A stretch of DNA of 64,000 bases from an uncultured bacterium (GTDB taxonomy: Bacteria; Spirochaetota; JAHITG01): positions 272 through 64,271 of the forward strand of contig CBDVEP010000001.1 of assembly GCA_965373035.1 (NCBI GenBank), given 5' to 3'. Both the position numbers and the translations under genes were made by a program. The first letter of the stretch is position 1. Every line of letters starts with the position of its first letter. The notes below the pieces were generated by a model. That model had not been told where the DNA came from and did no database searches. It was given only the letters and a program-made list of their open reading frames with translations. This document shows positions 7,510 through 26,666 of this stretch, piece after piece.

Positions 7510-7608
7510 TACACATCCTCCTTTTAAATATTAGACTGTGATTTAATTAAAGACTGTACCAAAAACATATAAATGAACTTTTCAGACAGCCCCTGCCTTT
7601 TCATTCCT

Positions 7609-8103
7609 TTATAATTCAATGTTGAATTGTTTAACTTTTAAAATTTTCAATATTCGATAAAGTGATTCAATAGTAATATTAGTTTTGCCCTGTTCAATTC
7701 TTGAAATATCTGATTGCTTAAATCCTGTTCGTTTTGCTAAGTCTATCTGAGTCATGTCTTTTTCAATCCTTGCTTTTTTTATTTTCTTCCCTATATCTAT
7801 CAAAAGTTGGATAGGTTTATCAATAGGTTGCTTTTTAATTAATTGTTCATAAATTGTTTCCCACCATGCAAGGAAAGTAGTTGCATGTGCAGTTTTATTC
7901 CAATATTTTTTAATCTTTGGCCATGAATTAATAAATTTTTCCTTATCTATAACTGAAAAAACTTCTTCTGGTCTATCACAATGAGAAAGTAATGTAACAA
8001 TTCTTGTTAAAAATTTAGGATGTTCAGGGTCTGGCAAAATATAATTTACTGTTTCTATTTGCGCCTGCTTATTTAAATCCCAAAAATATTTCTTTAAACT
8101 CAT
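7609..8103 (-). CDS. HTH_XRE-domain protein (putative antitoxin/regulator partner of the upstream nucleotidyltransferase)
   Basis: C-terminal XRE helix-turn-helix (DMTQIDLAKRTGFKQSDISRIEQGKTNITIESLYRILKIL). 4-nt overlap with the upstream gene. Confidence 0.55.
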   Translation of the reverse strand: MSLKKYFWDLNKQAQIETVNYILPDPEHPKFLTRIVTLLSHCDRPEEVFSVIDKEKFINSWPKIKKYWNKTAHATTFLAWWETIYEQLIKKQPIDKPIQLLIDIGKKIKKARIEKDMTQIDLAKRTGFKQSDISRIEQGKTNITIESLYRILKILKVKQFNIEL

Positions 8104-8807
8104 GATATAACACTCTCCATGAATTTTTTTATTTCATCATCTAAATATTTAATCATTATCGAAGAATCAAATTTTTTATCATATATATCAAAATCTAATA
8201 TGTTTATTTTAAGCTCCTGCCTGGAATAACTTCTATACCAGTAAATTATTCCTCTCTGTTGTTCTCTGGGCATCTTTTTTAAAAATTGATGAATAGGTAT
8301 ATAATTTTTAGATAAATAGTAAATATCAATTATATCTTTTCCCTCATTACGTCTTGTTATTTTTTCCCTTCCGATATTATCTATTTTCAAACGAGTACCT
8401 GCAATAGCCATAATTTTCTGGTAATAAATATGTTCAATATCATAGACTGCAACCTTATTAAATATATTTATAGTAGGATCACGAAAAAACACATCTTCAA
8501 TAAAATCAATTTTAAAAGTTAAATCTTTTTCAATTTCTGTTATATAAAATTTAACTTTTGCTCTGTTATTAGTAGTAAATTCATTTTCTAATTTTAATTC
8601 ATTATTTGTGACTTTTTCAAATTTAGTAACCAGATTACTAATCTCATTTTCATTATATTCATGACTAAAAAAATCAAGATCTCTTGAAAATCTATGGTGC
8701 AAATAATAAAGATCTAATGCTGTTCCACCTGCAAGTGCAAAACTATTATTATGTAAAGAAAAAACATTTAAAATATCTAATTGCAATTTTTTAATTTTTT
8801 TTTTCAT
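8100..8807 (-). CDS. Nucleotidyltransferase, AbiEii/DUF1814-like toxin family
   Basis: N-terminal LAGGTALDLYYLHHRFSRDLDFF motif typical of AbiEii-type nucleotidyltransferases. Confidence 0.5.
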   Translation of the reverse strand: MKKKIKKLQLDILNVFSLHNNSFALAGGTALDLYYLHHRFSRDLDFFSHEYNENEISNLVTKFEKVTNNELKLENEFTTNNRAKVKFYITEIEKDLTFKIDFIEDVFFRDPTINIFNKVAVYDIEHIYYQKIMAIAGTRLKIDNIGREKITRRNEGKDIIDIYYLSKNYIPIHQFLKKMPREQQRGIIYWYRSYSRQELKINILDFDIYDKKFDSSIMIKYLDDEIKKFMESVIS

Positions 8808-8949
8808 ATATTTTCAAAAATTATTATTTTAGTAAAAGTTCAAATATTATAGGTTCTAACCTATTTTTATTATAGCCTATAACCTATATTAATACATTTT
8901 TTTTCTTTTGTCAAGCTTTTTAAAAATAGATAGGGGAATATTAGACTCT

Positions 8950-9083
8950 AATTCCAGTAATGCGTAAATTACACTCACATTTTGTAGGGCGGGGATTTAT
9001 TCCCCGCCAAAAAAGGCGGTATATAAAATACCGCCCTACCATATTCCATAAAAAGAGGTGATAACTGACGCATTACTAATTCC
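8950..9083. mobile_element. MITE-like element: 6-bp direct repeat AATTCC flanking 10-bp terminal inverted repeats (AGTAATGCGT / ACGCATTACT) and a GC-rich hairpin core
   Basis: TSD at 8950-8955 and 9078-9083. TIRs at 8956-8965 and 9068-9077. Interior carries nested stem-loops (GTAGGGCGG..CCGCCCTAC, CGGGG-ATTTAT-CCCCG, GGCGGTA-TATAAAA-TACCGCC). Confidence 0.5.
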
Positions 9084-9095
9084 AAAACTTAAATA

Positions 9096-9130
9096 TTGAC
9101 ATTACATATAAATAATATATAATAATTATT
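9096..9130 (+). promoter_or_regulatory. Sigma-70-type promoter for the HDOD response-regulator gene
   Basis: TTGACA at 9096-9101, about a 16-17 nt spacer, then a TATAAT-like element. A strong SD (AAAGGAGGGGG) precedes the ATG at 9211. Confidence 0.4.
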
Positions 9131-9210
9131 ATTAAAATATCTTAATTTATAAGGGACTGTTAAGATATATTTTAACTGGAAGAAAATACTATTATAAAAA
9201 AGGAGGGGGT

Positions 9211-10392
9211 ATGGTTAGATCTATTCTTGTTATTGATAATAAAGAATTAAATAATGTATTAAAAGAGGCTTTGCCAGGTAATGATTATAAAATTCTTTTT
9301 GCTGCAGATATAAAAGAAGGGTTGAATATTCTTGCTGAAGAAAAAATTCATTTAATGATATTAAATATGAAGATGCCTGGTATTGTTGAATTTGAGTTTT
9401 TACGTGAAATAAAATCAAAATATTTTTCATTAATAAAAGTAATATCTATATTAAATGAAGATGTAAAAGAAGATATTGTTATTCGCTCTATTACAGAAGG
9501 AATGGCAAAATCGTATATTACTAAACCATGGGATAACTCGTTATTAAAAAAACAAATTGTTTCCTTATTTGCCATGCAGGAGTCTTTAAATCAAAAAGAT
9601 TTACTGGAATTAATTAATAAAATTGACGAATTGCCTGTACTTCCTTTATTATATCAAAAAGTCATGAACCTTATTCAGCAGAATAAAGGGATCAATGAAA
9701 TAGCTGATGTGATTGAAAAAGAACCAGGATATGTAGCTAAAATAATAGGAATTGTAAATTCCGCGTTTTATGGAGGAAAGATCGGTTCTGTAAAACAAGC
9801 ACTCCTTTATCTTGGGACTAATACGATTAAGGATGTAATTCTCTTTGCTGATATTTTTGAATATTTCAGGCATGCTAAAATCAAAGCCTATGATATTAAC
9901 TTGCTCTGGAAACATTTTAATCTTTGCAACAAAATTATGCAGCATCTTTATTATAAAATTCATGGAAGAAAAATATTTGATAAATTTGCTTCAACAGGAT
10001 TATTACATGATATTGGTAAATTAATTATGTTGAAATATTTTCCTGAACAATTTCGGCAGATCTGGATAAAAAAAAATAAAAACCCTGACATTCCTTTTAC
10101 TGTCATTGAAAATGATATCTTAGGAGTATCACATACCCAGCTTGGAGCTTATCTTCTCAACTGGTGGAATCTCCCCAGCTATTTTATTGAAGTCTGCCTG
10201 TATCATCATAACCCTCTTAGTCAACAAATTGTTCATAGAGAATTAATATCCTTGATTCATATTGCTGATATTTATTCATGGAAAAAATTAAAAAAATTTT
10301 TATCAGTAAAAGTAATTCCAGAAGCCTATCAAATAGCCAATATTGATGAAGCAGCAGTTCAGGAAGTAGTTAATAAAGTAGATATAAATTAA
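9211..10392 (+). CDS. Response-regulator receiver + HDOD domain protein (atypical receiver, phospho-acceptor Asp replaced by Asn)
   Basis: CheY-like N-terminus in which the usual ..DLxxMP.. reads MILNMKMPG. HDOD signature (LPVLPLLYQKVMNLIQQ.., LLHDIGKLIM). Confidence 0.6.
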   Translation: MVRSILVIDNKELNNVLKEALPGNDYKILFAADIKEGLNILAEEKIHLMILNMKMPGIVEFEFLREIKSKYFSLIKVISILNEDVKEDIVIRSITEGMAKSYITKPWDNSLLKKQIVSLFAMQESLNQKDLLELINKIDELPVLPLLYQKVMNLIQQNKGINEIADVIEKEPGYVAKIIGIVNSAFYGGKIGSVKQALLYLGTNTIKDVILFADIFEYFRHAKIKAYDINLLWKHFNLCNKIMQHLYYKIHGRKIFDKFASTGLLHDIGKLIMLKYFPEQFRQIWIKKNKNPDIPFTVIENDILGVSHTQLGAYLLNWWNLPSYFIEVCLYHHNPLSQQIVHRELISLIHIADIYSWKKLKKFLSVKVIPEAYQIANIDEAAVQEVVNKVDIN

Positions 10393-10512
10393 AATACAGA
10401 ATCTGTGTACATCTGGCGGAAAAATTTCCATGAGTCATCTTTATGCAGATATAATTTATGCTCCTTGCAGCCGCTGCGGCTGCAAAGCTGGATAAAAAAG
10501 CATTTAAAAGCA
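10339..10512. repeat. Direct repeat copy A (~175 bp, ~93% identical to 12059-12245) flanking the DUF4143 ATPase insertion
   Basis: Includes the last ~50 nt of the HDOD gene plus the 3' end of a truncated copy of the convergent Cys-rich gene. Confidence 0.7.
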
Positions 10513-10528
10513 TAGACTAAATTATCAT

Positions 10529-11854
10529 CTAAGTTTTATAAAATTTTGGAAACAAAGAAATAGCATATAATGGAATATCACAAACATTCCTTGTTTGATT
10601 AAAATTCCTTTGAGATGTTCTTGTTAAATATTCAGGATTGTATTTTTTATCATAGACTTTTAAACTTTTAGCTTTAGTATTTAATCCTGATTTTACTTCT
10701 AATGGATATATTTTTTCATTATAACTCAATATGAAATCAACTTCTGCTGTATTTTTACTTGTCCAATAATATAATTCATTAAAATTATTTACTACTAATT
10801 CTTGTGCTGCATAATTTTCTGTAAAAGCACCATTATAAAATGTGAATAATTTATTACCGTCAATAATAGTCTTAGGAGATAAATTCAGCATTGCTCCAAG
10901 TAAACCAACATCAATTAAAAATAATTTGAAAAAATTATCATTTTTATATGCAGATAATGGCAATTTCGGAGTGGAAACATTATAAGATTTATATACAACA
11001 CCTGCATCAATTAACCATTGTATCGAGTCATGATACTCTCTTGATTTAGAATTTTTACTTATTTCAGAATATTTAAATTTTTTCTTTTCTTTAATTAATT
11101 GATTTGGAATTGAATTCCAGATATTATTTATTTTTATAGCTTCAGCCCTTGATGCATATCTTGTTACATCAATTGAATAAGCTGTTAATATTTCTTTTTG
11201 AATTTTTCTTACCGAAGTATAATCTTTAGTAGTAACATATTTCACTATAGCTTCCGGCATACCTCCAATATAATAATATAATTTCAGATATTCCAATAAT
11301 TTTTCATGGAAAGCTTCTGGTATTTCATCTAAATTTTTCTTGTTATCTAAAAACTTTTTTAATTGATTTTCTTTATTTGAATTTAAAAATTCACCAATTG
11401 ATAAAGGGAATAATTGCATAAAATTCACTTTCCCAACAGGAAATGAGGTCTTTTGATTTTTATATAAAAAAATCCCCAGTAATGACCCTGTAGCAATAAT
11501 ATGGTATTCATTATGGGTTTCATTAAAATATTTTAAACATGTTAATGTTTGAGGAGAATTCTGTATTTCATCAAATATAATTAATGTGTTTAAAGGTTCT
11601 ATTTTTTTATTTGAATAAATTGATAATTTTTCAATTATTTTTTCTGGATACTTTTTTCTCTGAAACAAGTTTATCAGATCAGGGTCTTCTTCAAAATTAA
11701 AATATACATAATTGACATATTCATTTTTACCAAATTCTTTTAAAATAAAAGTCTTTCCAACCTGTCTGGCACCTTTTAATATTAACGGTTTTCTATCTTC
11801 TGCATTCTTCCATACAATTAATTTATTATATATATCACGTTTTAAGCTTATCAT
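10529..11854 (-). CDS. AAA ATPase (AAA_14 + DUF4143 'ATP-binding protein' family)
   Basis: Walker A KGARQVGKTF and a DUF4143-type C-terminus. Paralog of 24806..26047. Confidence 0.75.
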   Translation of the reverse strand: MISLKRDIYNKLIVWKNAEDRKPLILKGARQVGKTFILKEFGKNEYVNYVYFNFEEDPDLINLFQRKKYPEKIIEKLSIYSNKKIEPLNTLIIFDEIQNSPQTLTCLKYFNETHNEYHIIATGSLLGIFLYKNQKTSFPVGKVNFMQLFPLSIGEFLNSNKENQLKKFLDNKKNLDEIPEAFHEKLLEYLKLYYYIGGMPEAIVKYVTTKDYTSVRKIQKEILTAYSIDVTRYASRAEAIKINNIWNSIPNQLIKEKKKFKYSEISKNSKSREYHDSIQWLIDAGVVYKSYNVSTPKLPLSAYKNDNFFKLFLIDVGLLGAMLNLSPKTIIDGNKLFTFYNGAFTENYAAQELVVNNFNELYYWTSKNTAEVDFILSYNEKIYPLEVKSGLNTKAKSLKVYDKKYNPEYLTRTSQRNFNQTRNVCDIPLYAISLFPKFYKT

Positions 11855-11892
11855 ACATATAAATTTAATACTAAAATTTAAAAAGTCAACTT
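11855..11892 (-). promoter_or_regulatory. Promoter of the DUF4143 ATPase gene (TTGACTTTTTAAA -35 box shared with the 24806 paralog; no SD, probably leaderless or very short leader)
   Basis: On the minus strand: aagTTGACTTTTTAAATTTTAGTATTAAATTTAT-ATG. Confidence 0.4.
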
Positions 11893-12058
11893 TTTTATAT
11901 GAAAAAGGTGTAAATTTATTACTTTATTCATATGAAAAAAGTGTATGTTTTAATATTTTTCCTCCTAAAAATATAAATGTTTCAATTACAGCTGGCTAAA
12001 AAATAAGGAAAAACACATAAAAAAGGTTTTAAACTCTCCTAACATGCTTTTTCGGTTT

Positions 12059-12245
12059 AATATTGATGAAGCAGCAGTTAAGGAAGTAGTTAATAAAGTA
12101 GATATAAATTAAAATATAGAATCTGTGTACATCTGGCGGAAAAATTTCCATGAGTCATCTTTATGCAGATATAATTTATGCTCCTTGCAACCGATACGGC
12201 TGCAAAATTGGATAATACTGTTTGTAAAAGCATTTAAAAGTACAG
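12059..12245. repeat. Direct repeat copy B (partner of 10339-10512)
   Basis: Same sequence as copy A with a ~12-nt indel. Overlaps the 3' end of the intact Cys-rich gene 12109..12585. Confidence 0.7.
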
Positions 12246-12585
12246 AAGGGGCACTACATTTAGGACAGTTATGCTCGACTTTCAGGACAAGGCTTTTCTT
12301 ACAATGTGGACAAAAAAATTCTACAATTATCTCTTTTTTATAATTAAACTGCTCTGGAAACTCAACCTTAAAATCATCCAGTTTATCAGAAAGAATAAAT
12401 ATACCATGTTTTTTATCATCCCATTTGCCCAGTAAAACTATCTCTCCTTTTTTATTAGTAAGGGCTGTATTACATTCCGGACATTTTGTCCATAATTTAA
12501 CATAAACACTATGACCTTTTTTTGCATAGGGATTATGTTCAATTGATACATATTCTTCTTTGTTTTTTAATTTTAGTTCCAGCAT
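12109..12585 (-). CDS. Cysteine-rich hypothetical protein (three CPxC-type pairs; putative zinc-ribbon protein)
   Basis: CPEC...CPHC...CPKC plus further Cys residues. No recognisable family. Confidence 0.35.
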   Translation of the reverse strand: MLELKLKNKEEYVSIEHNPYAKKGHSVYVKLWTKCPECNTALTNKKGEIVLLGKWDDKKHGIFILSDKLDDFKVEFPEQFNYKKEIIVEFFCPHCKKSLVLKVEHNCPKCSAPSVLLNAFTNSIIQFCSRIGCKEHKLYLHKDDSWKFFRQMYTDSIF

Positions 12586-12604
12586 TTCTTTGTTCTACCT
12601 CACT

Positions 12605-13960
12605 TTAAAGGAAATAATTTTTATAAAGTATTTGAACGGTCTCTTCCACATCATCCTGAGCTACACATAAAATAATACTAATTTCAGAGCCGCCTTTCAT
12701 AATCATTTTTATATCAATCTTCTTTTTATTTATAGCATCAAGCATAGAGACTAAAGAGCTGTTATCATCCTTTAACCCTTTACCAACAATTGAGATTAAA
12801 GCACGGTTATAATCAAAATAAACATTATCAGCCTTCATTTCATTATATACCTGTTTGCATATTTCTCTTATTTTCTCCAGTGGCAACTGGTCCTGTTTTA
12901 ATATTACTGATATACTGTCAATACCGGATGGAGAATGGTCAAAAGACAGTTTGTTTTTTTCAATAATTTCAAAAAGCCCCCTGCAGAATCCCTTTTCCTG
13001 ATTCATCATATATTTTTCAACATTAATAGTACAAAATCCTTTATCATAAGCTATTCCAACAATGCTTTTTTCTTTCAGATCCCTGTCCTTAACTATTAAA
13101 GTGCCTGGTTGGGCTAAGTCGTGAAAATTTATAAGATGTATGGGAATGCTCTTTTTCATCACAGGATGAAGCAGCTCCTCATGAAATGTCTTAAATCCTG
13201 CATAAGTAAGTTCTCTTAATTCCTGGTATGTAATTTTAGGAATCACCTTTGCATCAGGAACCAGTTTTGGATTAACTACTGTAAGACCATTATAATCAAT
13301 AAAATTTTCATATAATTCTGCATTAACTGCGTTTGCAAGTATAGAACCTGTCATATCATTTCCACCCCTGCTGAATGTAGCAATATGACCTTTTTTTGTA
13401 TAACCGAAAAATCCTGGAATTATAATAATACCTTCTCTATTTTTTAATAATTCTAACTTATTATATGAATCATCTATAAGTGAAGCACAGCTAAAATCCG
13501 TTGTAACAATCAATCCTGCATCATGAGGGTCAACATACTGGCAGGAAACTCCTTCATTCTGCAGGTACTCAACAACCAGACGTGCGCTGTATTCTTCACC
13601 AGCGGATTTGACTTTATTCAGATACCTTGCTTCTTTCCCCCTGGAAGTGCTGATACGCTTTTTCAAATCCTGAATGTATCTATTTACAGACCTGCTGGAT
13701 ATTTTCAAGCCATGGTAGATATTATCAAACCGCTTTTGTATCTGTTCAATTAATAACACAGGTAATTTTTTATTTTTTATATAATATTGTGCACATTCTA
13801 TCAGCATATCAGTCATATTCTCTTCAGTATCTGTTTTCCCGGGTGCTGCCATAACAACTATCTTTCTCTTTTCATCAGCCAGAAGTATCTTCTTAAGCTG
13901 TTTGATATGTTCAGATGCTGTTAATACATTCCCGCTGAATTTACACACTTTAATACTCAT
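12605..13960 (-). CDS. Aspartate kinase (amino-acid kinase fold + C-terminal ACT domains)
   Basis: N-terminal KFSG..VVMAAPGKTD kinase motif region. C-terminal ACT-like segment ..ISIVGKGLKDDNSSLVSMLDAINKKKIDIKMI... Confidence 0.55.
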   Translation of the reverse strand: MSIKVCKFSGNVLTASEHIKQLKKILLADEKRKIVVMAAPGKTDTEENMTDMLIECAQYYIKNKKLPVLLIEQIQKRFDNIYHGLKISSRSVNRYIQDLKKRISTSRGKEARYLNKVKSAGEEYSARLVVEYLQNEGVSCQYVDPHDAGLIVTTDFSCASLIDDSYNKLELLKNREGIIIIPGFFGYTKKGHIATFSRGGNDMTGSILANAVNAELYENFIDYNGLTVVNPKLVPDAKVIPKITYQELRELTYAGFKTFHEELLHPVMKKSIPIHLINFHDLAQPGTLIVKDRDLKEKSIVGIAYDKGFCTINVEKYMMNQEKGFCRGLFEIIEKNKLSFDHSPSGIDSISVILKQDQLPLEKIREICKQVYNEMKADNVYFDYNRALISIVGKGLKDDNSSLVSMLDAINKKKIDIKMIMKGGSEISIILCVAQDDVEETVQILYKNYFL

Positions 13961-14170
13961 CTACCTTTTCTCCTAAAGTATTTATAACTGAAACAGTACC
14001 GCCCAAAATATTTGGTATTATCCAATTTCATTCCTCCAGTCATAATTATCCGTCAAATATAATATACAAAATTTTACTGTCAATTTTTAATTCATAATAA
14101 TCATTTAAATTTTATAAAATCTTGGAAATAATGAAATAGCATAGCAAAGTAAACTTAAAAACCAATAAAT

Positions 14171-14253: not shown

Positions 14254-14299
14254 TTACTTGATTTTATTTTTCTTGTTGCTATAATTAAAATAATATAAA

Positions 14300-19194: not shown

Positions 19195-20133
19195 ATGGAA
19201 ATTGAAATCCTGGGAGCAGAATCTTTAGGGGTTAGAGGCTTATGCTGTTTTATAAAAACTAAAAACAAAAAGATATTAATTGACCCGGGAATAGCATTAG
19301 GTTATCAAAGACATGGATTACTTCCTCATCCTTTTCAGATAGCAGTAGATGAAAGAATACAAAAAAAAATTTTAGATAGATGGAAAGAAGCTACGGACAT
19401 AATTATAAGCCATTTTTATGGAGACCACATCCCTTTAAAAAATGCAAATCCTTTTCAGCTCAGTTTAAAAAAAGTTGAAGTAAAACGAGATGCAAATTTT
19501 TGGTGCAAAGGATCTGATTCTCTTTCTCCAACCATGCTTGAGCGTTATAAAGATTTATCAAAAATTTTTAAGTTAAAAAATGCGCAAGGTAAAAATTATA
19601 AACTTTTAAGTTTTTCCAGACCGGTTCCTCATGGAGAAGCAAATAATAATTCTGATACAGTTATGATGACCAGAATCAAGGATGAAAATTTTACATTTGT
19701 GCATGCCTCGGATATTCAACTTCTTAACAATAAAGCAATTGATAAAATATTATCATGGTCTCCGGATATAGTACTGGCAGGCGGTCCTCCCCTTTATTTA
19801 TCTGAATTTTCTGAAAATCAAATTAAGAAAGCATGGCATAATGCCAAACGGCTTTCCTGTAAAGTTGATATTTTAATTCTTGACCATCACCTAATGAGAA
19901 ATCTTAAAGGACTCAAGTGGTTAAAACGCCTATCCCTTGAAACAGGCAAAAAGGTTATTTGTGCGGCTGATTTTATGAAAAAACCCAGAATGCTCCTTGA
20001 AGCCAAACGCGAGCAGTTGTATAAAGATATGCAGGTTCCTGAAGGATGGCATAAAGATTATGCAAAAAGTAAAGTCAATACTAAATCTTATTGGAATAAG
20101 GCTTTAAAACTTTACAAAATGTTAAAATTATAG
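19195..20133 (+). CDS. Hypothetical metal-dependent hydrolase (MBL-like HFYGDH motif; UPF0282-like)
   Basis: ILGAESLGVRGLCCFIK..DPG.. and SHFYGDHIP motif. Low-confidence family call. Confidence 0.35.
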   Translation: MEIEILGAESLGVRGLCCFIKTKNKKILIDPGIALGYQRHGLLPHPFQIAVDERIQKKILDRWKEATDIIISHFYGDHIPLKNANPFQLSLKKVEVKRDANFWCKGSDSLSPTMLERYKDLSKIFKLKNAQGKNYKLLSFSRPVPHGEANNNSDTVMMTRIKDENFTFVHASDIQLLNNKAIDKILSWSPDIVLAGGPPLYLSEFSENQIKKAWHNAKRLSCKVDILILDHHLMRNLKGLKWLKRLSLETGKKVICAADFMKKPRMLLEAKREQLYKDMQVPEGWHKDYAKSKVNTKSYWNKALKLYKMLKL

Positions 20134-20232
20134 AACTAACAGTTAAGGAAAAGGCTGGGGCATGAGGATTAATAAAAAATATATTGAATTTATTTTAAAT
20201 GTTAATTTTTTATAAAAATTTTTAATAAAAAG

Positions 20233-20275
20233 ATAAGGGTCAACTGTTTTGAACAGTTGCCCCTTATCTTTCTTT
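20233..20275. terminator. Bidirectional intrinsic terminator between the convergent MBL-like gene and glnK
   Basis: 14-bp stem ATAAGGGTCAACTG / CAGTTGCCCCTTAT (one mismatch), loop TTTTGAA, T-runs on both sides. Confidence 0.55.
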
Positions 20276-20617
20276 TTAACCTATGGCTGCTTTACCTGTC
20301 TCTCCTGTACGAATTCTAATTACTTTTGGTAAATCCAATATGAAAATTTTTCCATCTCCGATTTTGCCTGTTTTGGCTCCTTCTATAATCGCATCAATTG
20401 TTTGCTGGACAAACTCATCATTTATTGCTATTTCCAATCTGGTCTTTTTTAACAGGTTAATATCTGTAATAACACCTCTATAGGTCTCAGTGAATCCTTT
20501 TTGCTGTCCACAGCCTAATGCTGTGGATACAGTCATTTTATGGATATCAGCTTCAAATAAAGCTGCTTTAACATCTTCCAGTTTATGAGGCTGTATCAAT
20601 GCAATAATTAACTTCAT
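20276..20617 (-). CDS. glnK: PII nitrogen regulatory protein GlnK (amtB-linked)
   Basis: PII fold signature (T-loop region ..GQQKG..RG.., GDGKIF). Immediately downstream of amtB. Confidence 0.85.
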
Positions 20618-20634
20618 ATCCTTTGTACCTCCTT

Positions 20635-22005
20635 TTAATTAATTATTTGAAATCCACCGTAGGATTCCATGCCATGTTCTCCAATATCCAGTCCTTTCAA
20701 TTCTTCTTCCTTGGTTACACGAAGTCCTATGGTATATTTTATACTGAGAAACAATACTGTTGCTGCTGCAATTGTCCATCCAGCCACAGCAAGAACACCA
20801 ATTGCCTGAATACCAAGCTGATGAGTCCCTCCTCCGAAAAATAAGCCATTAACAGCACCAAATCCAGATGCCTGTGCATAAGAGGCCTCTGCAAATAAAC
20901 CCACAGCTAAAGTACCCCATACTCCATTTATTCCATGTACTGAAACAGCACCAACAGGATCGTCAATTTTTAATACCTTGTCGAAAAACTCAACTGACAA
21001 TACAACCAGTACTCCTGCAATAGCTCCGATAATAACAGAGCTGACTGGTGATACAACTGAACAGGGAGCTGTAATTGCAACAAGTCCTGCTAATGCACCA
21101 TTCAATGACATTGACACATCAGGCTTTCCATTAAGTACCCAGACAGTACACATAGCTAAAATAGCGCCAGCTGCTGCTGCAAGATTGGTAGTCATGGCAA
21201 CATGTCCGATAATATCACTATAGCCTAAAGTACTACCAGCGTTAAATCCAAACCATCCAAACCACAATAAAAATACTCCTAATGCAGCAAGAGGAATACT
21301 GTGTCCTAGTATTGCTTTTGCCTTTTTATTTTTATCATATTTACCTAATCTTGGGCCTAAAACTAATGCTCCTACTAAACCAACCCATCCGCCAACTGAG
21401 TGAACAACTGTTGAACCTGCAAAATCAATCATGCCTAACTTGGAAAGCCAGCCGCCACCCCATATCCAATGTCCGGATACAGGATAAATCACCAGGCTTA
21501 TTACAAAACTAAAGATCAGATAACCAACAAACTTGGTTCTTCCTGCCATAGCTCCTGATACAATTGTAGCAGCAGTTGCAGCAAATACAACCTGAAAAAA
21601 CCATGAGGCATATTCCCATAATCCTTCATTTGTAGCAGGATTGGCTGAGCTTAAAAAAAAGTTGCTTGCACCAAATAAGCCACCCAGTTTGCTTGTTCCA
21701 TACATAATTCCATAACCAACAGCAAAATAAGCTATAGAACCTATGGAAAAATCCATTACGTTTTTCATAAGAATATTACCGGCATTTTTTGCCCTGGTAA
21801 ATCCAGTTTCTACCATTGCAAAACCAGCCTGCATCATAAATACTAAAAACCCGGCAACTAAAAGCCATACAAAGTCAATAGGCAAATGTGCTGGTGCAGA
21901 TGATGCTTCTTCTTCAGCAAAAAGCATTCCTGCAGAAAAAAGTAAAGTGAAAAGAATCATCAATGAAATGATTTTAGTTGAATTTTTAAAAAACTTTTTT
22001 ACCAT
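20635..22005 (-). CDS. amtB: Ammonium transporter AmtB
   Basis: Signal peptide followed by a typical Amt/MEP 11-TM core (..[14 protein letters not shown].., ..GFNAGS..). Confidence 0.85.
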
Positions 22006-22079
22006 TTTGTTTTTACCTCCTTATTTTTATCTATAAAAGGGAATTTCAGGACAATCTAAAATCCCCTTTTATTTTTAAA

Positions 22080-22757
22080 TTAAAAATTATAAGCAACACC
22101 TAAAGAAACAAAACCATCTACAGAATCTCCATTATCTGTGTTGTTATATTGATCATCTAAAGCCACCTGTCCAAAAACCAGTGGTGTAATCTCAACTGGA
22201 CCGGCAGGAATAGCTGCACTTAGTCCTAAACCTAAAACAGATAAAGATGAATCATCTGTCCATTGTCCAGCATTATATCCAAGAGATAAATCCAGAGAGA
22301 GTATCATAATAGGATAAGAAGCACCCAGTTCTACATACAAACCATCACCATCATCAACATCATAATAAAGAGTTAACCCAGGGGAAAGAAATACATCCAG
22401 GCTAATACCTGCAAAGAATTCATGTGAATCACAACATTCCGGCTGTGGGAAAGTGTAAAAAGTATAACCAGCACTTAAGCCAACTATTTCTGAAACAGTA
22501 GTTTCATAACTTAAAGTGAAATCCGCCTCTGCAAAATCACCAGGGTCAACATGATAGCTGCCCCAGAATCCTAATGAAAAAGAGCCGTAATTCAAATCAG
22601 CACCTGGCTGAAGAGCAAACTTATCAAAAAGATTCCAGCCTCTCCATAAGTATTTGCTGACACCAGCTACATACACATCTCCGCTTATTTCAGCGGAAAA
22701 AACATTGCTACTTAACATTAAAAGCAGCAAAATAAAAATAATGAATGTTTTCTTCAT
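22080..22757 (-). CDS. Outer-membrane beta-barrel (porin-like) protein, first gene of the amtB-glnK operon
   Basis: Signal peptide, alternating amphipathic strands, C-terminal ..VAYNF aromatic terminus. Confidence 0.45.
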   Translation of the reverse strand: MKKTFIIFILLLLMLSSNVFSAEISGDVYVAGVSKYLWRGWNLFDKFALQPGADLNYGSFSLGFWGSYHVDPGDFAEADFTLSYETTVSEIVGLSAGYTFYTFPQPECCDSHEFFAGISLDVFLSPGLTLYYDVDDGDGLYVELGASYPIMILSLDLSLGYNAGQWTDDSSLSVLGLGLSAAIPAGPVEITPLVFGQVALDDQYNNTDNGDSVDGFVSLGVAYNF

Positions 22758-22937
22758 TTTAATAAACCTCCTTATAAATTTTAAGTATGATAAAACTCAT
22801 ACTATGATTTTAAATCTTAATAACCCATGGCAGCTTGTTTAAACAGCCACATGGTCTATTATTAACTTTGTTTGACTGGCAACACCTCCTTATCCAATAT
22901 TTTTTTTAATAATCCACATATCTGAACATGTGAAATG

Positions 22938-22952
22938 TTTCTGATGTTAATT
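22938..22952 (-). promoter_or_regulatory. Sigma-54 (-24/-12) promoter of the porin-amtB-glnK operon
   Basis: Minus-strand reading TGGCAC-GTTGT-TTGCT, a perfect match to TGGCAC-N5-TTGCW. Confidence 0.7.
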
Positions 22953-23038
22953 ATAAAGCAAACAACGTGCCAAGTCATACTTTATAACTATTGATATTCA
23001 ATAAATTATAAAAATAATTTTTTAATTAAATCATCAAT

Positions 23039-23057
23039 TTGCACTAAATTTATGCAA
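23039..23057. promoter_or_regulatory. Candidate enhancer/UAS palindrome TTGCA-N9-TGCAA about 90 bp upstream of the amtB sigma-54 promoter
   Basis: TTGCACTAAATTTATGCAA. The same arms and spacing recur upstream of nifH. Confidence 0.4.
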
Positions 23058-23489
23058 GTTTATAATATTTTTAAAATCCGCATAATTAATATGCAATTTT
23101 TATATACACTATCCTCCACATTTTACAATAAAATTTATAAAATTAAACAAATTTAGTAACTTTCAGCAGAATATATTTTGGAATTAATCCTTCAGGATTT
23201 CATTACTTTAAAAATGAAACATGAGCAAGCCATTTCATCCCAAGAAGAGGTAGTATATACTCAAAAAATTTTACAAAGATAAAAAGCTTCCTTGATATAA
23301 GGAAATTATAATATATATTTGTCTTTAGGTGAAAGAAACTATGAAAGCAATATTTGAACAGTTAATTGTAGATTTTCATGGGTCTAAAATTCCACAGCCT
23401 AGTAAAAGAGAATTAACTCTTCTGTCTCTACCTATTTTAAACAAATGATATCAGGACATTTTTTATATTTATCTTATTCTTTTTATTTC

Positions 23490-23925
23490 TCATTTCCATG
23501 GTCCATGAGCTTTCCATGTTTCGTTAAACTTATAATCCTTCTTGATTGCATCAAGTGGCTTAATAAGAAACCTTTCTATCTCCTTTGCTGTAGTAGACAA
23601 CTTTTCAGGTGCATGTTTAATATCTCCCTTTTTCAAAAATGCATTCCAAAGTATTTGGCGATCCGATTTTTCATCATAGATTTCTTCAGCAAATAATGGG
23701 CTATCCTGCGGAAAAGGAGTCTTACGATGCTTAAAAGTTCTTCTTAACGCTTCGGCAAGTTGAAATCCATTAAAATTGAACTGGCGCATCATTAGCCATA
23801 TATCATAGAAATCTTTCCATACCATAATACTGCAGAATTTCTGAAAATGAACGATTAGTTTCTTTAGCTTTATTTTGGAGCCGGGCTCGTACAGAAGCTT
23901 GTAAATTCTTGATATCTTTTTTCAT
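23490..23925 (-). pseudogene. Degraded AbiEii toxin gene (N-terminal 40 codons, stop, then C-terminal 111-codon ORF in another frame)
   Basis: MKKDIKNLQASVRARLQNKAKETNRSFSEILQYYGMERFL* starts at 23925, overlapping the AbiEi stop. An AbiEii C-terminal-like ORF 23490..23825 follows. Confidence 0.5.
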
Positions 23926-24524
23926 AGCATAGTCTCAAGTATTGGTTTTATGATATTATCAACACGGCAAATCTTGGCATATTGCATTATTTCTTTTGGT
24001 TTTACATTCTTTTCCGTAACAGCTACTTTAAGAGCTTCCCGTATAATGTTCATCCCGAGTTTATTACGGAATTTAAAACAATCCGCAATCGTCTTGGCAA
24101 GATTATAAACCTTGATTTTATAACCTTCTATTTTGTGTTCTTCAATTCCAGCCTCCCATGGTTTAGGACCAAAACGGTAAAATCTAACTGGAGGATATTT
24201 GATTCTATAAGCATGAGTACCCCGTGGAATAGCTATGTCCACATACTTAGGGATTTCAGTTGTTGCCTCATGAAAAGAAAGAGCAGAGAGAAGACAGATA
24301 ACTCCCCGGGGAGCCTGAAAAGATACAGCAACAAGGTCAGGATGGATCCCGGCAGTATAATTAGTCAGCTTGTAAAGTCCCCTGGCAATCTTTTCAACTT
24401 TCTTCTCTTTCTCAAGAGTGTTAAGTGAATCGGGATGAAATCCAGCTTTTAGAATAGCTGAAAACCTGACCACTCCGCCATTACTCTGGAAAAAATTTAT
24501 AAGTCCTTGTGTTTTTCTTTGCAT
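23922..24524 (-). CDS. AbiEi-family antitoxin domain protein (probable start at internal Met; long ORF extends to 24656)
   Basis: RGLYKL.. wHTH-like N-terminus from MQRKTQGLINFFQSNGGVVRFSAIL. Directly upstream of the AbiEii remnant. Confidence 0.5.
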   Translation of the reverse strand: MQRKTQGLINFFQSNGGVVRFSAILKAGFHPDSLNTLEKEKKVEKIARGLYKLTNYTAGIHPDLVAVSFQAPRGVICLLSALSFHEATTEIPKYVDIAIPRGTHAYRIKYPPVRFYRFGPKPWEAGIEEHKIEGYKIKVYNLAKTIADCFKFRNKLGMNIIREALKVAVTEKNVKPKEIMQYAKICRVDNIIKPILETML

Positions 24525-24771
24525 ACTGCCTCCGTATAATATTGTAACATTTATGAATAAGTATATATAATTTATACGAAAATGTAAAATATTTTTTTTA
24601 AACGTCAAATTCAGGGTTTCTTGAATCTCGTAATGCGAAAAAATTTTATCCGTCAATAAGCTTTTACCCTATCGGGTATCTGTGATCTATCATAAGTGTG
24701 AAATAAACTATTTACAGAAACAGGTGTAGAAGTAAGCTTTCCACCTTATAATAAAACAATGTAAATTTAAA

Positions 24772-24805
24772 TTGACTTTTTAAAATTACATGGTATAATT
24801 ATTAT
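24772..24805 (+). promoter_or_regulatory. Strong sigma-70 promoter with extended -10 placed for a leaderless transcript of the DUF4143 ATPase gene
   Basis: TTGACT (24772-24777), 16-nt spacer, TGgTATAAT (-10 at 24794-24799). ATG at 24806 is 7 nt after the -10. No SD. Confidence 0.55.
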
Positions 24806-26047
24806 ATGAATTATATTATAAGACAATTAGAAACTAAACTAATGCAGTATATTAAACAGTTTCCAATAGTTGTACTTACTGGTGCGAGACAATCAGGTAA
24901 ATCAACTTTATTAAAGCATTTATTCAGTAGTGATGACTGGGAATATATTAACTTAGATCAACGCGGGATATTAGAACAAATTAATTCTGATCCAGATTTA
25001 TTTATAAAGGATATTCGATCAAATATTATTATTGATGAAGCACAAAAATCTCCAAATTTATTTCATTCAATTAAATGGAAAATTGATGAAGGAATGAAGT
25101 ATAAAATAATCTTATCCGGATCAGCTAATTTTCACTTACTTCAAAAAGTAACTGAAACTTTAGCTGGTCGTGCCGGAATTTTGGAATTATATCCTTTATC
25201 TTTAAGTGAAAAACATAAACAGCATAATCTATTAGATTTACTTATAAATACTAATAATATTAATGAATTAAAAAACAAATTAAAGAAGATTAATCTTGTA
25301 AAAGATGATGATATATTTCTATATATACTTTGGGGTGGTTATCCAAAATTACTTGAGTATAAAAATTCAGAATTTAAGCTGAACTGGTTTGAAAATTATC
25401 GTACAACTTATATAGAAAGGGATTTAAGAGATTTAGCTCAAATAGCTGATCTAAGTGATTTTCAGCGTTTTTATCAATTGTTAGCCTTTCAAACCGGGAA
25501 TATATTAAATCTTTCCAATATAGCTAATGAAATAGGTATTACGGTACCTACATGTAAAAAATACATGCAAATTTTAGAATTATCATATCAATACTTTTTA
25601 CTAAAGCCTTATTATTCAAATATTAGAAAAAGATTAATTAAGTCTCCAAAAATTTACTGTATGGATACAGGTTTATGTAATTTTTTTCTAGAAAATAGTT
25701 CGCGTAAATTATTAATGAATTCCAGTAAATTAGGTAATTTGTTTGAAAATAGTGTAATTGTGGATATTATGAAACAAAATAGTTTTTTAAATAAAAAATG
25801 TAATATGTATTATTGGAGAACTTCAAATGGAACTGAGATTGATCTTGTAATTGAGCATGGTGAAAATCTTATACCAATTGAAATTAAATCCAGTATAAAA
25901 ATTTCATCTGTTTCAATAAGAGGTCTAACTGATTTTTTAGTATTAAAAATAAATAAAAAAATACCTTATGGAATAGTAATATATCGTGGAGACAGAGTTT
26001 CACAAATTTCAGATAAAATATTAGCTGTACCAATTGGTTATTTATAA
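24806..26047 (+). CDS. AAA ATPase (AAA_14 + DUF4143 family), second paralog
   Basis: Walker A TGARQSGKSTL. Same architecture as 10529..11854. Confidence 0.75.
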   Translation: MNYIIRQLETKLMQYIKQFPIVVLTGARQSGKSTLLKHLFSSDDWEYINLDQRGILEQINSDPDLFIKDIRSNIIIDEAQKSPNLFHSIKWKIDEGMKYKIILSGSANFHLLQKVTETLAGRAGILELYPLSLSEKHKQHNLLDLLINTNNINELKNKLKKINLVKDDDIFLYILWGGYPKLLEYKNSEFKLNWFENYRTTYIERDLRDLAQIADLSDFQRFYQLLAFQTGNILNLSNIANEIGITVPTCKKYMQILELSYQYFLLKPYYSNIRKRLIKSPKIYCMDTGLCNFFLENSSRKLLMNSSKLGNLFENSVIVDIMKQNSFLNKKCNMYYWRTSNGTEIDLVIEHGENLIPIEIKSSIKISSVSIRGLTDFLVLKINKKIPYGIVIYRGDRVSQISDKILAVPIGYL

Positions 26048-26169
26048 TAAAAACAGAGAAAAATAATAGCAATTTGCTTATTAAAAAATTATAGCTATTT
26101 AATTTAAAAAATGTATTTTATAATAACACAATTATAATATAGTAATTTTGCATTAATAAGGAGGCGTTT

Positions 26170-26640
26170 ATGAAGACAAGGACTAAACAATTCATTTCCC
26201 TGGGAATAGTTTTTTTAATTCTTTTTTTTATCAGTTGTGCTCCTGGTAATGTGAAATTTGATAAAACTCCTGCGGGATTTTTGGCAGGATTGTGGCATGG
26301 ATTTATCTGTCTTTTTACATTCATTATAAGTCTTTTTTCAGATAAAGTAGTAATTTATGAAACAGCAAATACCGGGGGATGGTATAATTTCGGATTTATT
26401 CTTGGGCTGGCTATATTCTGGGGAGGCAGCAGCAAATCGCATTCTAAGTCAAAATCTAAGAAGAAAAAATTGAAAGAAAAAGAGTGGGAAGGGATTGTTT
26501 CAAAAGTTGAAGAAAAAGTCCGCAAAGGTATAAAAAACTGGTTAGATGAGTCTAATGAGAAAAATAAAGACTGGGAAGAGATTGGTAAAAAAATAGAAGA
26601 AAAGATTAAACGGGAATTATGCAATTGGGCAGAGAAGTAA
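26170..26640 (+). CDS. Hypothetical membrane/lipoprotein with a Lys/Glu-rich C-terminal tail
   Basis: Signal/lipobox-like FFISC, two TM-like segments, then KSHSKSKSKKKKLKEKEWE... SD GGAGG upstream. Confidence 0.35.
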   Translation: MKTRTKQFISLGIVFLILFFISCAPGNVKFDKTPAGFLAGLWHGFICLFTFIISLFSDKVVIYETANTGGWYNFGFILGLAIFWGGSSKSHSKSKSKKKKLKEKEWEGIVSKVEEKVRKGIKNWLDESNEKNKDWEEIGKKIEEKIKRELCNWAEK

Positions 26641-26666
26641 TTAATTCGGCAAAACAATCCTCCTGT

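Follow-up and report, generated by a model that had tools for sequence, protein, structure and literature searches.

A probable strain-variable gene-turnover hotspot, rich in toxin–antitoxin and candidate defence modules, among the nitrogen-metabolism genes of a low-GC bacterium

Between the AIM24 and glnA genes of an uncultured low-GC bacterium, toxin–antitoxin (TA) modules, gene fragments and recurring short sequences are interspersed with housekeeping genes. How was such a collection assembled? The initial annotation regarded the region as a mosaic accessory island whose layout resembles a cassette array. Our search covered a window (the whole stretch of DNA analysed) of 64 kb from an 82,850-nt source contig. 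The relatives compared are short metagenome contigs (1–7 kb, labelled L001–L011) from mixed populations, whose DNA is about 92–97% identical to the window. The closest named relative is a Spirochaetes metagenome-assembled genome (MAG), with an aspartokinase that is 71% identical.

The relatives' contigs define a co-linear backbone, glnA–porin–amtB–glnB–aspartokinase–ORF158–AIM24, whose linkage is a composite across several contigs rather than a single genome. Its order and orientation in L002, L004, L005 and L011 are the same as in the window. The backbone genes are co-directional and are interrupted in three consecutive intergenic spacers by AT-rich inserts that total 15.2 kb. The blocks are as follows.

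6687–7547, minus strand: left anchor, AIM24 gene at 6739–7509 (Pfam AIM24, E = 1.4e-76)
7548–12105, no strand: insert 1, with the AbiEii-1/HTH module, a response regulator with an HDOD domain (RR-HDOD) and DUF4143 ATPase #1 (4,558 nt, GC 26.1%)
12106–14096, minus strand: aspartokinase (12605–13960), ORF158 (12109–12585) and their promoter; L002 and L003 homology ends at 14096
14097–20234, no strand: insert 2 (6,138 nt, GC 26.8%), in place of which L002 has 60 nt
20235–23105, minus strand: TorF-like porin (22080–22757), amtB, glnB, sigma-54 leader and terminator (Pfam, NCBIfam, promoter alignment)
23106–27601, no strand: insert 3, with degraded AbiE-3, DUF4143 ATPase #2, ORF156, a split RseC/MucC gene and a DUF4143 fragment (4,496 nt, GC 28.7%)
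27602–29087, minus strand: right anchor, glnA (27675–29087) and terminator (Pfam Gln-synt); L004 and L005 homology begins at 27602

The inserts have a GC content of 26–29%, compared with 31–36% for the backbone, and gene by gene the values are 23–28% for the inserts' defence genes and 31–39% for backbone genes. Each insert is missing from at least one relative. L011, which is 96% identical over 7547–6687, lacks insert 1 and has the AIM24 block joined straight to the ORF158 3′ end across 45 nt. Its homology stops at 6687, before the HydF start, and the downstream neighbour of AIM24 differs there. In L002, insert 2 is absent and the glnB terminator directly adjoins the aspartokinase promoter (predicted by promoter scan as TTGACA-16-TATATT, 14083–14056). 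L004 and L005 carry 54 nt in place of insert 3, and glnA is thus joined to the porin–amtB–glnB block, which is 92–93% identical to the window in L002, L004 and L005. The flanking core genes show fairly even identity to relatives (85–100% per 100–150 nt), and no recombination tracts are visible in them.

Neighbours also change. AbiE-3 adjoins aspartokinase in L003, glnB adjoins GNAT-ABC in L005, the 3′ end of ORF312 abuts that of ORF158 in L007, AbiE-2 lies upstream of GH9 in L008, and the sequence beyond AbiEii-2 differs in L009. L001 retains only the aspartokinase/ORF158 gene pair. Gene order therefore changes at every junction among relatives that are approximately 7% diverged, and the view of the region as a mosaic hotspot, for which a conserved order would have been damaging, stands. 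The variable zone is real, while its limits, originally placed at 7600–26650, are set by the relatives' breakpoints at 7548–27601. Housekeeping genes are indeed interspersed with the modules (aspartokinase at 12605–13960, glnB–amtB at 20276–22005).

Could the mosaic be largely an artefact, either of a chimeric MAG contig or of chimeric low-coverage contigs from relatives, with strains mixed at repeats? The window comes from a metagenome assembly, the contigs of its relatives are short and thinly covered (coverage 3.2 for L002 and 1.6 for L010, from contig names), and repeats of 48–188 nt lie at several boundaries. However, the independent assembly L010 reproduces the window's arrangement over 13790–14885 at 99.7%, and breakpoints are shared across samples (14096 in L002 and L003; 23105/27602 in L004 and L005). 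Furthermore, the repeats are diverged (81–97%) and shorter than typical read pairs, and the breakpoints coincide with promoters and the ends of genes, not with the interior of repeats. We consider an artefact very improbable. Judged from the sequence comparisons, this stretch of approximately 20 kb is probably a strain-variable gene-turnover hotspot, or really three adjacent ones.

The hotspot sits among nitrogen-metabolism genes, and its contents are TA and candidate phage-defence genes in three insertions with much decay. Each insert is a patchwork of modules of a selfish or defence type (AbiE, HEPN/MNT and DUF4143 ATPases) plus a few cargo genes (a GH9 cellulase, a metallo-beta-lactamase (MBL)-fold gene, ORF312 and RR-HDOD). 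Insert 1, whose proteins are singletons at 90% identity, contains the following.

7609–8807, minus strand: variant AbiE-like pair, AbiEii nucleotidyltransferase (8100–8807) followed by an Xre-type HTH_3 protein (7609–8103) (Pfam, PADLOC)
9211–10392, plus strand: response regulator with HDOD domain (Pfam HDOD, E = 3.6e-43; Response_reg, E = 7e-12)
10339–10516, plus strand: direct repeat copy 1, RR 3′ end and a decayed copy of the ORF158 3′ end (repeat search, self-blastn)
10529–11854, minus strand: DUF4143/AAA_14 ATPase #1 (Pfam; PADLOC candidate PDC-S01, E = 2.5e-168)
12059–12246, plus strand: direct repeat copy 2, copy of the RR 3′ end and the true ORF158 3′ end (repeat search, self-blastn)

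In the variant pair the toxin gene comes first and the genes overlap by 4 nt (Pfam AbiEii E = 5e-19, HTH_3 E = 2e-13; PADLOC AbiEii E = 6e-17). DUF4143 #1 is bracketed by the direct duplication of approximately 178 nt (10339–10516 and 12059–12246, 90–93% identical by repeat search and self-blastn). Within it, the final 54 nt of the RR-HDOD gene recur at 12059–12112, and copy 1 matches ORF158 residues 116–158 at 79% (tblastn). DUF4143 #1 might have entered through a Campbell-type single crossover or a duplication-insertion that left this duplication behind.

Such repeats also resemble the attL and attR sites of an element that copies its target's 3′ end. Together with the AT-richness of the inserts and their many pseudogenes and fragments, they fit a history in which one or more ICEs or IMEs, prophages, satellites or transposons integrated, kept their defence cargo and lost their mobility genes. 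Against this, recombinase (integrase or transposase) families are absent from all ORFs of at least 110 aa across the 64 kb, and no relaxase, capsid, terminase or transposase remnant was found. No tRNA or Rfam matches were found either, so a tRNA target is not present, and the two inserts tested have no DNA similarity to known plasmids or phages. In addition, intact backbone operons part the inserts, and their sub-modules behave independently in relatives. A decayed mobile element is therefore unlikely. The features of insert 2 are listed here.

14096–14143, minus strand: 3′ end remnant of a DUF4143 gene at the insert edge (87.5% to 10520–10567, self-blastn)
14171–14253, no strand: REPIN-like doublet, two inverted 29-nt boxes with a 25-nt spacer, 83 nt overall (repeat search)
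14300–14973, plus strand: HEPN (14300–14695) and MNT nucleotidyltransferase (14665–14973) pair (Pfam HEPN, E = 3e-18; Polbeta, E = 6e-16)
14981–15097, plus strand: second MNT cut down to its N-terminal 39 aa (Pfam Polbeta, E = 3.5e-5, profile positions 16–39)
15100–15155, plus strand: promoter module copy 1, predicted TTGACA-18-AATTAT (self-blastn, promoter scan)
15155–15295, minus strand: inverted copy of the TetR/ptsP intergenic region 58535–58673 (81% over 142 nt, self-blastn)
15435–16236, plus strand: GH9 cellulase pseudogene (L008 alignment)
16257–16645, no strand: patch with a TGGGGACGG site at 16267 and a 185-nt internal GNAT fragment, 16374–16558 (self-blastn; Pfam Acetyltransf_18)
16646–18365, minus strand: intact module AbiE-2, AbiEi (17456–18064), AbiEii (16660–17469) and upstream region (PADLOC)
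18366–19086, plus strand: promoter module copy 2 (18394–18451) and MBL-fold gene (18474–19085) (Pfam Lactamase_B)
19195–20133, plus strand: ORF312, PRK04286-like hypothetical protein (NCBIfam NF003288, E = 6.5e-114, below the family cut-off)

The remnant at 14096–14143 is also matched by DUF4143 #1 residues 430–440 (tblastn), and the MNT at 14665–14973 matches PADLOC PDC-S09. The ORFs 15435–15767 and 15736–16236 are the 5′ and 3′ ends of one GH9 cellulase gene, which is intact in L008 (938 aa; CelD_N, Glyco_hydro_9). In the window it has lost 2,015 nt internally, with the joint at 15748/15749 and no microhomology. L008 also lacks the TetR/ptsP intergenic copy at the corresponding place, carries the promoter module upstream of both GH9 and MBL, and is 97% identical over the MBL segment until its homology stops at 19086. 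AbiE-2 (PADLOC AbiEi E = 1.3e-43, AbiEii E = 2.8e-46) is 95% identical to its counterpart in L009, and its upstream region includes a box-like site at 18299–18327. In relatives, the adjacent patch is not linked to it, with L009 diverging at 16646 and L008 at 16256. The GNAT fragment in this patch is 91% identical to the window's own GNAT gene (36128–36312, inverted) and 94% to that of L005. Insert 3 contains the following modules.

23490–24656, minus strand: degraded AbiE-3, AbiEi (23922–24656) and the C-terminal third of AbiEii (23490–23825) (Pfam, PADLOC)
24806–26047, plus strand: DUF4143/AAA_14 ATPase #2 (Pfam DUF4143, E = 7e-49; PADLOC PDC-S01, E = 5e-111)
26667–27080: split RseC/MucC gene
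27455–27495: second DUF4143 fragment

AbiEii-3 matches only positions 160–226 of the Pfam AbiEii profile, and AbiEi-3 has a PADLOC E value of 1.5e-66. L003 carries AbiE-3 beside aspartokinase, and its DUF4143 #2 is a pseudogene. Nearly all of the gene content reported earlier is borne out by these matches, including three AbiE-type modules (one intact, one variant and one degraded; Pfam and PADLOC), the HEPN/MNT pair with a truncated extra MNT (Pfam HEPN and Polbeta), two DUF4143 ATPases (both PDC-S01), the GNAT fragment and the DUF4143 3′ remnant (88% after rounding). A self-comparison of the window, by repeat search and self-blastn, likewise recovers the repeats, among them the duplicated promoter module of 58 nt (15100–15155 and 18394–18451, 96.6% identity).

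Boundaries of inserts or deletions coincide with the ends of three DUF4143 units or remnants. Measured from the stop codon or the position equivalent to it, the edges are 9 or 12 nt farther on at 10517/10520 and 14096, and 6 nt farther on at 26053. This pattern hints at a discrete unit, which simple illegitimate recombination does not predict.

Might a short repeated sequence have assembled the island? The inverted repeat reported at 14171 as perfect over 29 bp is confirmed as an inverted repeat but is not perfect, with arms (14171–14199 and 14225–14253) that are complementary at 28 of 29 positions. Its predicted DNA fold has an energy of -26 kcal/mol (z -11.5). Because inverted copies of the box bracket Y1 (IS200/RAYT-like) transposase genes in metagenome contigs, the 83-nt palindrome is a REPIN-like doublet, with a box that a Y1 (RAYT-like) transposase mobilises elsewhere. 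Contigs of 34–49% GC contain the identical 29-mer. The palindromic element once labelled a MITE thus exists, with its family better described as REP/REPIN-like. As in REP/REPIN elements with RAYTs (PMC3116915, PMC3337134), there are two inverted boxes of about 29 nt, a short spacer and a long hairpin, the box is dispersed in intergenic DNA, and inverted copies surround a single Y1_Tnp gene in metagenome contigs. In contrast to those systems, the single box is not palindromic, no terminal GTAG or CGTC tag was identified, the 64-kb window has just one doublet, and no Y1 gene was seen in this genome.

The exact 9-mer TGGGGACRG, said to recur, is over-represented, with four sites in the window (14177, 16267, 18305 and 62838, the last within gltB) where 0.26 are expected, and 0 of 100 shuffles reach four. 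As whole-box copies, the solo sites are at best weak relics, with resemblances of 20/29 at 18299 and below 18/29 at 16258, and a profile search of the window returns the two arms alone.

This over-representation is one of the points in favor of a site-specific, integron-like array, in which a recombinase encoded outside the window would add and rearrange cassettes of one gene each at the TGGGGACRG box or the palindrome. Compared with L008, one 9-mer falls 11 nt within the breakpoint at 16256/16257, the doublet is 75 nt from the 14096 breakpoint, and the modules are small and mostly self-contained. TA modules are also typical residents of chromosomal integrons. However, the window has the single palindromic element, which by inspection lacks a GTTRRRY core, and the box family is linked to Y1 transposase genes, not integrases. 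As the initial annotation also noted, no integrase (ORFs of at least 110 aa) or canonical attC is present, and no attC-like repeat was found at module boundaries. The 19 junctions share no motif: the best 8-mer occurs in 6 of them, and 19 of 200 random sets score at least as high. The modules occupy both strands and have promoter-like sites of their own (promoter scan), and the blocks with differing neighbours include housekeeping operons. Chromosomal integron arrays are similar in having small, packed, strain-variable modules with many TA systems, but here intI is missing, module ends lack attC, the modules share neither an orientation nor a promoter, and housekeeping operons are interleaved. 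The resemblance to a cassette array in the integron sense is therefore not supported, and within the window this reading is for the most part refuted. A trans-acting recombinase may be encoded outside the 64 kb, in the other 19 kb or so of the contig or elsewhere in the genome, and yet we would give an array of this type only the slimmest of chances. The palindrome is not a site of cassette recombination, and rather than the agent that assembled the island it would be a passenger of its spacer.

For a turnover hotspot, the comparisons provide three kinds of evidence: presence or absence of modules and changing neighbours among relatives about 92–97% identical; decay by truncation, clean internal deletion and frameshift; and short, diverged copies of nearby genes that remain as scars. 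Decayed features include the GH9 deletion, the C-terminal third of AbiEii-3, the MNT stub, the split RseC gene, the DUF4143 remnants and the DUF4143 #2 pseudogene of L003. It is reasonable to propose that horizontal transfer brings the modules in and host recombination fixes them, with no dedicated site-specific recombinase, perhaps through double crossovers in flanking conserved genes or illegitimate joins in spacers. TA addiction and phage pressure might then favor short-term retention, with erosion afterwards.

Many hotspots of horizontal transfer contain no mobile elements, and recombination at the core genes beside them is the explanation given (PMC5635113). Defence hotspots with no identifiable mobilisation are also known (PMC10250203, cited in PMC10121019). 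Like the core-flanked hotspots of P. aeruginosa core defence (PMC10250203), E. coli #37 (PMC10121019) and the MGE-free class (PMC5635113), the present locus holds defence and TA clusters between conserved genes, varies in content among close relatives, lacks an integrase or transposase and has high turnover. It differs in that a single 20-kb backbone carries three small hotspots in successive spacers, in that the backbone operons also change neighbours in some relatives, and in that the evidence is a few short metagenome contigs, not a pan-genome.

TA systems are known to occupy high-turnover spots and to erode through toxin pseudogenisation (PMC13617665), and this locus shares the high-turnover siting, the pseudogenised toxin AbiEii-3 and the short-lived linkage. 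In the same study, TA systems were seldom grouped with other defence systems and often had transposases or integrases linked to them, whereas here they lie beside candidate defence ATPases with no recombinase present. The AbiE (type IV TA/abortive infection) and HEPN–MNT modules have the expected domain pairs, overlapping frames and strong HMM matches. However, in module 1 the place of an upstream AbiEi is taken by an Xre-type HTH partner encoded after the toxin, and module 3 lacks the nucleotidyltransferase domain.

A defence/TA hotspot with no mobility genes is an already known kind of locus. The region would thus be an ordinary turnover hotspot rather than an integron-like cassette array.

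The initial annotation had described the zone at 7600-26650 as a mosaic accessory island packed with TA modules and gene fragments. Comparison with relatives supports this hotspot reading, because content varies between the conserved flanking genes of close relatives. Gene order at the junctions of the window differs from relative to relative instead of being stable, and thus the region is a real hotspot. The genes of the zone and its borders are as follows.

Features of the variable zone and its flanks (coordinates, strand where assigned, description, source)
6739-7509, minus strand: AIM24 (HMM scan)
7609-8103, minus strand: Xre-type HTH protein (HTH_3), downstream partner of AbiEii-1 (HMM scan)
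8100-8807, minus strand: AbiEii nucleotidyltransferase of module 1 (HMM scan)
9211-10392, plus strand: response regulator (RR) with HDOD domain (HMM scan)
10529-11854, minus strand: DUF4143/AAA_14 ATPase #1 (PADLOC PDC-S01, E 2.5e-168, profile positions 2-433 of 439)
12109-13960, minus strand: ORF158 and aspartokinase (HMM scan)
14300-14695: HEPN (HMM scan)
14665-14973: MNT (HMM scan)
14981-15097: MNT stub of 39 aa (profile match)
16660-18064, minus strand: intact AbiEi/AbiEii pair, AbiE-2 (PADLOC, E 1.3e-43 and 2.8e-46; 14-nt overlap)
18474-19085: MBL-fold gene (HMM scan)
19195-20133: ORF312
20276-22757, minus strand: glnB, amtB and TorF-like porin (HMM scan)
23490-23825: AbiEii of module 3, C-terminal third only (HMM scan)
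23922-24656, minus strand: AbiEi of module 3 (HMM scan)
24806-26047, plus strand: DUF4143 ATPase #2 (PADLOC PDC-S01, E 5e-111, profile positions 8-417 of 422)
After DUF4143 ATPase #2: ORF156
27675-29087, minus strand: glnA (HMM scan)

The genome collection offered a single relative, a Spirochaetes MAG (L001) whose aspartokinase is 71% identical in amino acids. At this identity, and with only aspartokinase and ORF158 in common with the window, it is too distant to delimit the island. Close relatives were instead found as short metagenome contigs through 90%-identity protein clusters, with DNA 92-97% identical to the window. Three sets of these contigs carry empty junctions. Contigs L004 and L005 run from glnA through 54 nt to porin-amtB-glnB and miss 4,496 nt (23106-27601, insert 3). 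Similarly, L002 joins amtB-glnB to aspartokinase-ORF158 through 60 nt and misses 6,138 nt (14097-20234, insert 2), and L011 passes from the end of ORF158 through 45 nt to AIM24 and misses 4,558 nt (7548-12105, insert 1). As read from these sequences, the composite backbone glnA–porin–amtB–glnB–aspartokinase–ORF158–AIM24 matches the window in order and direction once the three inserts are removed.

Within this backbone, ORF158 (12109-12585, minus strand; 10372-10848 in L001) directly follows aspartokinase in every case. It is 80% identical in L001, is also found in L002, L003 and L007, and gives only weak, sub-threshold matches to zinc-finger-type Pfam models. Aspartokinase and ORF158 probably form a conserved two-gene operon.

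HMM scans with Pfam and PADLOC bore out the gene list of the initial annotation. Three AbiE-type modules, one HEPN/MNT pair and two PDC-S01 ATPases are clustered within 20 kb. AbiE-2 is an overlapping pair of an AbiEi antitoxin-type protein and AbiEii (DUF1814), predicted from its domains to be an AbiE type IV TA system. In AbiE-1 an HTH_3 partner replaces AbiEi, and AbiE-3 is without the transferase domain. Both DUF4143 ATPases match PDC-S01 models (AAA_14 plus DUF4143) over their full length, and a defense role is a candidate annotation for them. The remaining window genes (ntrC, glutamate synthase genes, a nif operon, ptsP and gltB) belong to the nitrogen regulon or to housekeeping. GC content is ~31% for the window, 26.1-28.7% for the inserts, 23-28% for the defense genes within them and 31-39% for backbone genes. 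No tRNA genes were found in the window, and a search of it against Rfam (gathering thresholds and E<=1) gave only weak miRNA and sRNA matches on hairpins, none of them meaningful.

Other contigs place different neighbors at the same junctions. In L003, the degraded AbiE-3 is the immediate upstream neighbor of aspartokinase, and DUF4143 #2 survives as a pseudogene of 38 codons, including a stop, followed by 222 nt of filler. In L007, ORF158 adjoins the 3′ end of ORF312. Full GNAT-ABC genes, which begin at 36041 in the window, come after glnB in L005, and this order implies that the lineages differ by an inversion of ~16 kb (20264-36040) reaching from the amtB operon to the gltD-like genes. L009 sets the end of the AbiE-2 unit at 16646, which places the GNAT fragment outside this unit. 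A contig from another sample (L010) reproduces 13790-14885 at 99.7%, which speaks against an assembly artifact for that segment.

In L008, AbiE-2 is followed by an intact gene for a 938-aa GH9 cellulase and then by the MBL gene. The intact GH9 gene identifies window ORFs 15435-15767 and 15736-16236, two "unknown" ORFs whose annotation is hereby corrected, as the ends of a cellulase pseudogene. In the window, 2,015 nt have been cleanly lost from within the GH9 gene, and the joint shows no microhomology. By the order in L008, 16257-18365 is also an insertion that separates GH9 from MBL in the window; homology between L008 and the window stops directly past the MBL stop codon. Identity to the window is 97-99% for L008 and 92-96% for the core-gene contigs of the same sample (SRR29278628: L003, L005 and L011). 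This hints at an accessory segment lately exchanged between lineages or, equally, at a second, closer strain in the sample.

A repeat search and self-blastn of the window recovered the repeats noted in the initial annotation and added further ones. The duplicated 58-nt promoter module held up well, as 15100-15155 recurs at 18394-18451 with 96.6% identity. The DUF4143 3′ remnant at 14096-14143 is 88% identical to 10520-10567, and a fragment of DUF4143 #2 is also present at 27455-27495. DUF4143 #1 is flanked by a direct duplication of ~178 nt (10339-10516 and 12059-12246, 90-93%) that carries the 3′ ends of both convergent genes on its sides. At 16374-16558, the GNAT fragment repeats, in inverted orientation, a part of the GNAT gene that the window itself carries (36128-36312, 91%) and is nearer to the gene in L005 (94%). 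Likewise, the TetR/ptsP intergenic region has an inverted copy of 142 nt at 15155-15295. An RseC/MucC-like gene, split into two ORFs at 26667-27080 (minus strand; Pfam profile positions 1-69 and 75-129), is a further pseudogene of insert 3, beyond the end that the initial annotation had set for the island. A tblastn extension of an RR fragment to 11987 is probably due to chance and was set aside.

Several additional repeats were observed. A promoter-like module of ~45 nt (TTGACAGTAAAATTTT..TATATTATATTT) has three copies, one at the aspartokinase promoter (14055-14100), one in the TetR/ptsP intergenic region (58526-58571) and one in the inverted copy of that region in insert 2 (15259-15295). 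Insert 3 holds a perfect 34-nt palindrome at 27324-27357 (AAATAAAAAGAGAGATATTAATATCTCTCTTTTTATAA region), whose Rfam match is weak and without meaning. Between ptsP and gltB, at 60985-61260 (plus strand), a chimeric pseudo-ORF fuses an HTH piece (residues 66-112, 92% to 7909-7769) to the 3′ end of HydF (C-terminus, 88% to 5576-5439). The fusion resembles what would be left of a duplicate HTH–AIM24–HydF locus after an internal deletion.

The layout had also been likened to a cassette array, and this comparison is not supported. An integron array has intI beside it, whereas no integrase, transposase or any other recombinase family (including Phage_integrase) was found in ORFs of at least 110 aa across the 64-kb window. 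Each integron cassette ends in attC, an imperfect palindrome (RYYYAAC...GTTRRRY), whereas no such site is present here: the sole palindromic element (14171-14253) is, by inspection, without the GTTRRRY core. Moreover, integron cassettes are mostly promoterless and share one orientation, whereas the island genes lie on both strands and have promoter-like sites of their own, with strong ones upstream of RR-HDOD, HEPN, GH9, MBL and DUF4143 #2 in a promoter scan. A k-mer search revealed no motif common to the 19 junctions. The best 8-mer, an A/T word, is shared by six of them, which 19 of 200 random position sets also reached; a common recombination site was therefore rejected. The junctions either closely follow a stop codon or terminator or lie shortly before a promoter, and the two inserts searched had no DNA similarity to plasmids or phages. 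Thus, an integron-like reading fails on its defining features. The region does resemble core-flanked defense/TA hotspots in both clustered systems and variable content between conserved flanks.

The palindrome at 14171-14253 had been described as a MITE with a perfect 29-bp inverted repeat. The repeat is real but imperfect, with 29-nt arms that are complementary at 28 of 29 positions around a 25-nt spacer (fold -26 kcal/mol, z -11.5). A 20-mer of its arm is found unchanged in 36 JGI metagenome contigs (L012-L047; GC 34-49%), which define a conserved box of ~29 nt, AAAG[AT]A[TA]GGGGACGGTTCTAATACTTTT. The box lies between genes in these contigs, frequently close upstream of one, and is arranged in singlets, inverted doublets or tandems. 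In three of them (L012, L014 and L015), two inverted boxes bracket a gene of 224-226 aa with a Y1_Tnp domain (PF01797, E 1e-14). Genes bracketed by inverted boxes, along with REPIN doublets, are typical of REP-associated tyrosine transposases (PMC3116915, PMC3337134), and by this likeness the window element is better called REPIN-like. It is a palindromic element tied to a repeat family associated with Y1 transposases.

The likeness is partial. As in a REPIN, two inverted boxes with a short spacer form a hairpin. However, boxes flank a Y1 (RAYT) gene only in those three contigs, and no Y1 transposase gene was seen in the window. A single REP is an imperfect palindrome, whereas the window arm has a fold of -0.4 kcal/mol, which does not exceed that of shuffled sequences, and inspection of the box found no terminal tag like the GTAG/CGTC of REPs. 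There is one doublet in 64 kb, and among the contigs of close relatives only L010 has one, which is the same doublet re-assembled. The 29-nt arm is identical at every position in the 36 contigs, whose GC is 34-49%, versus 31% for the window. Such sameness across dissimilar genomes is unusual for REP elements and may reflect horizontal spread.

The box had also been said to recur elsewhere in the island. Its exact 9-mer, TGGGGACRG, is indeed enriched in the window (4 observed versus 0.26 expected), but full copies at 16258 and 18299 are poorly supported. A box profile search of the window found only the two palindrome arms. Site 16258 matches the box at fewer than 18 of 29 positions and was rejected by both profile and consensus. 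Site 18299 is weak, with a negative profile and a marginal consensus match of 20/29; in simulation, at least three such matches per window were rare and one was not. As a separate observation, a box doublet in metagenome contig L040 (2689-4168) immediately precedes the promoter of an AbiEi/AbiEii pair that is related to AbiE-2 (42% and 26% identity), an arrangement that recalls the box-like site of the window, ~240 nt before AbiEi-2.

Two other observations concern the wider window. The regions upstream of porin-amtB-glnB (22944-23105) and nifH (48978-49135) have in common a module of ~160 nt, more weakly present at 29132-29294, with a sigma-54-type promoter (TGGCAC-N5-TTGC) and a palindromic TTGCA-N9-TGCAA ~70 nt upstream. 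The amtB-operon and nifH promoters are probably NtrC-dependent. In addition, GC skew switches sign near ~2 kb and ~58 kb, with nearly all genes in between on the minus strand, and the two points may correspond to a replication landmark or to a large inversion.

How might such an island form? Modules are present or absent independently, and neighbors change at the same junctions. We envisage that modules arrive horizontally and would be fixed by host recombination at the conserved flanks together with illegitimate joins in the spacers; DUF4143 #1 might reflect a single-crossover or duplication-insertion event. Addiction or phage pressure could then retain modules for a short term before erosion. 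Decay by truncation, deletion and frameshift is seen directly, and diverged short copies of nearby genes remain. Hotspots without mobile elements are known, and the proposed mechanism agrees with them (PMC5635113). It also agrees with defense hotspots without identifiable mobilization (PMC10250203, PMC10121019) and with the acquisition and erosion of TA systems (PMC13617665). Across aspartokinase-ORF158 and the amtB block, identity among three lineages, for few sequences, is even and shows no clear recombination tracts; the host-recombination step is one that we infer.

A more radical possibility is a cassette cycle independent of any recombinase, in which repeat-bounded genes loop out and re-enter as small circles by homologous recombination, with the DUF4143 ATPase-nuclease genes as discrete, self-promoting units. 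Three DUF4143 units or remnants end at insert or deletion edges, lying 9 or 12 nt past the stop codon or its counterpart (10517/10520, 14096) or 6 nt past (26053). Direct duplications also bracket DUF4143 #1 (~178 nt) and, in L008, GH9 (copies of the 58-nt promoter module). These edges and duplications leave a small chance for such a cycle or for DUF4143 genes moving as units, and we consider it very improbable. A related candidate, the AbiE-2/MBL joint as a product of recombination between L008-like promoter-module copies, was rejected because the joint (18357-18366) lies outside the module. If true, the cycle would amount to integron-like shuffling without an integrase that also relocates housekeeping operons.

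With the corrections described here, the observation of the initial annotation is confirmed, and its hotspot reading is supported. For the field at large, known patterns are confirmed and not changed. The inserts could serve as a local source of candidate defense genes. The region provides a clean example, with base-level breakpoints and from a barely sampled lineage, of defense and TA genes that accumulate and decay between conserved operons without mobile-element machinery.
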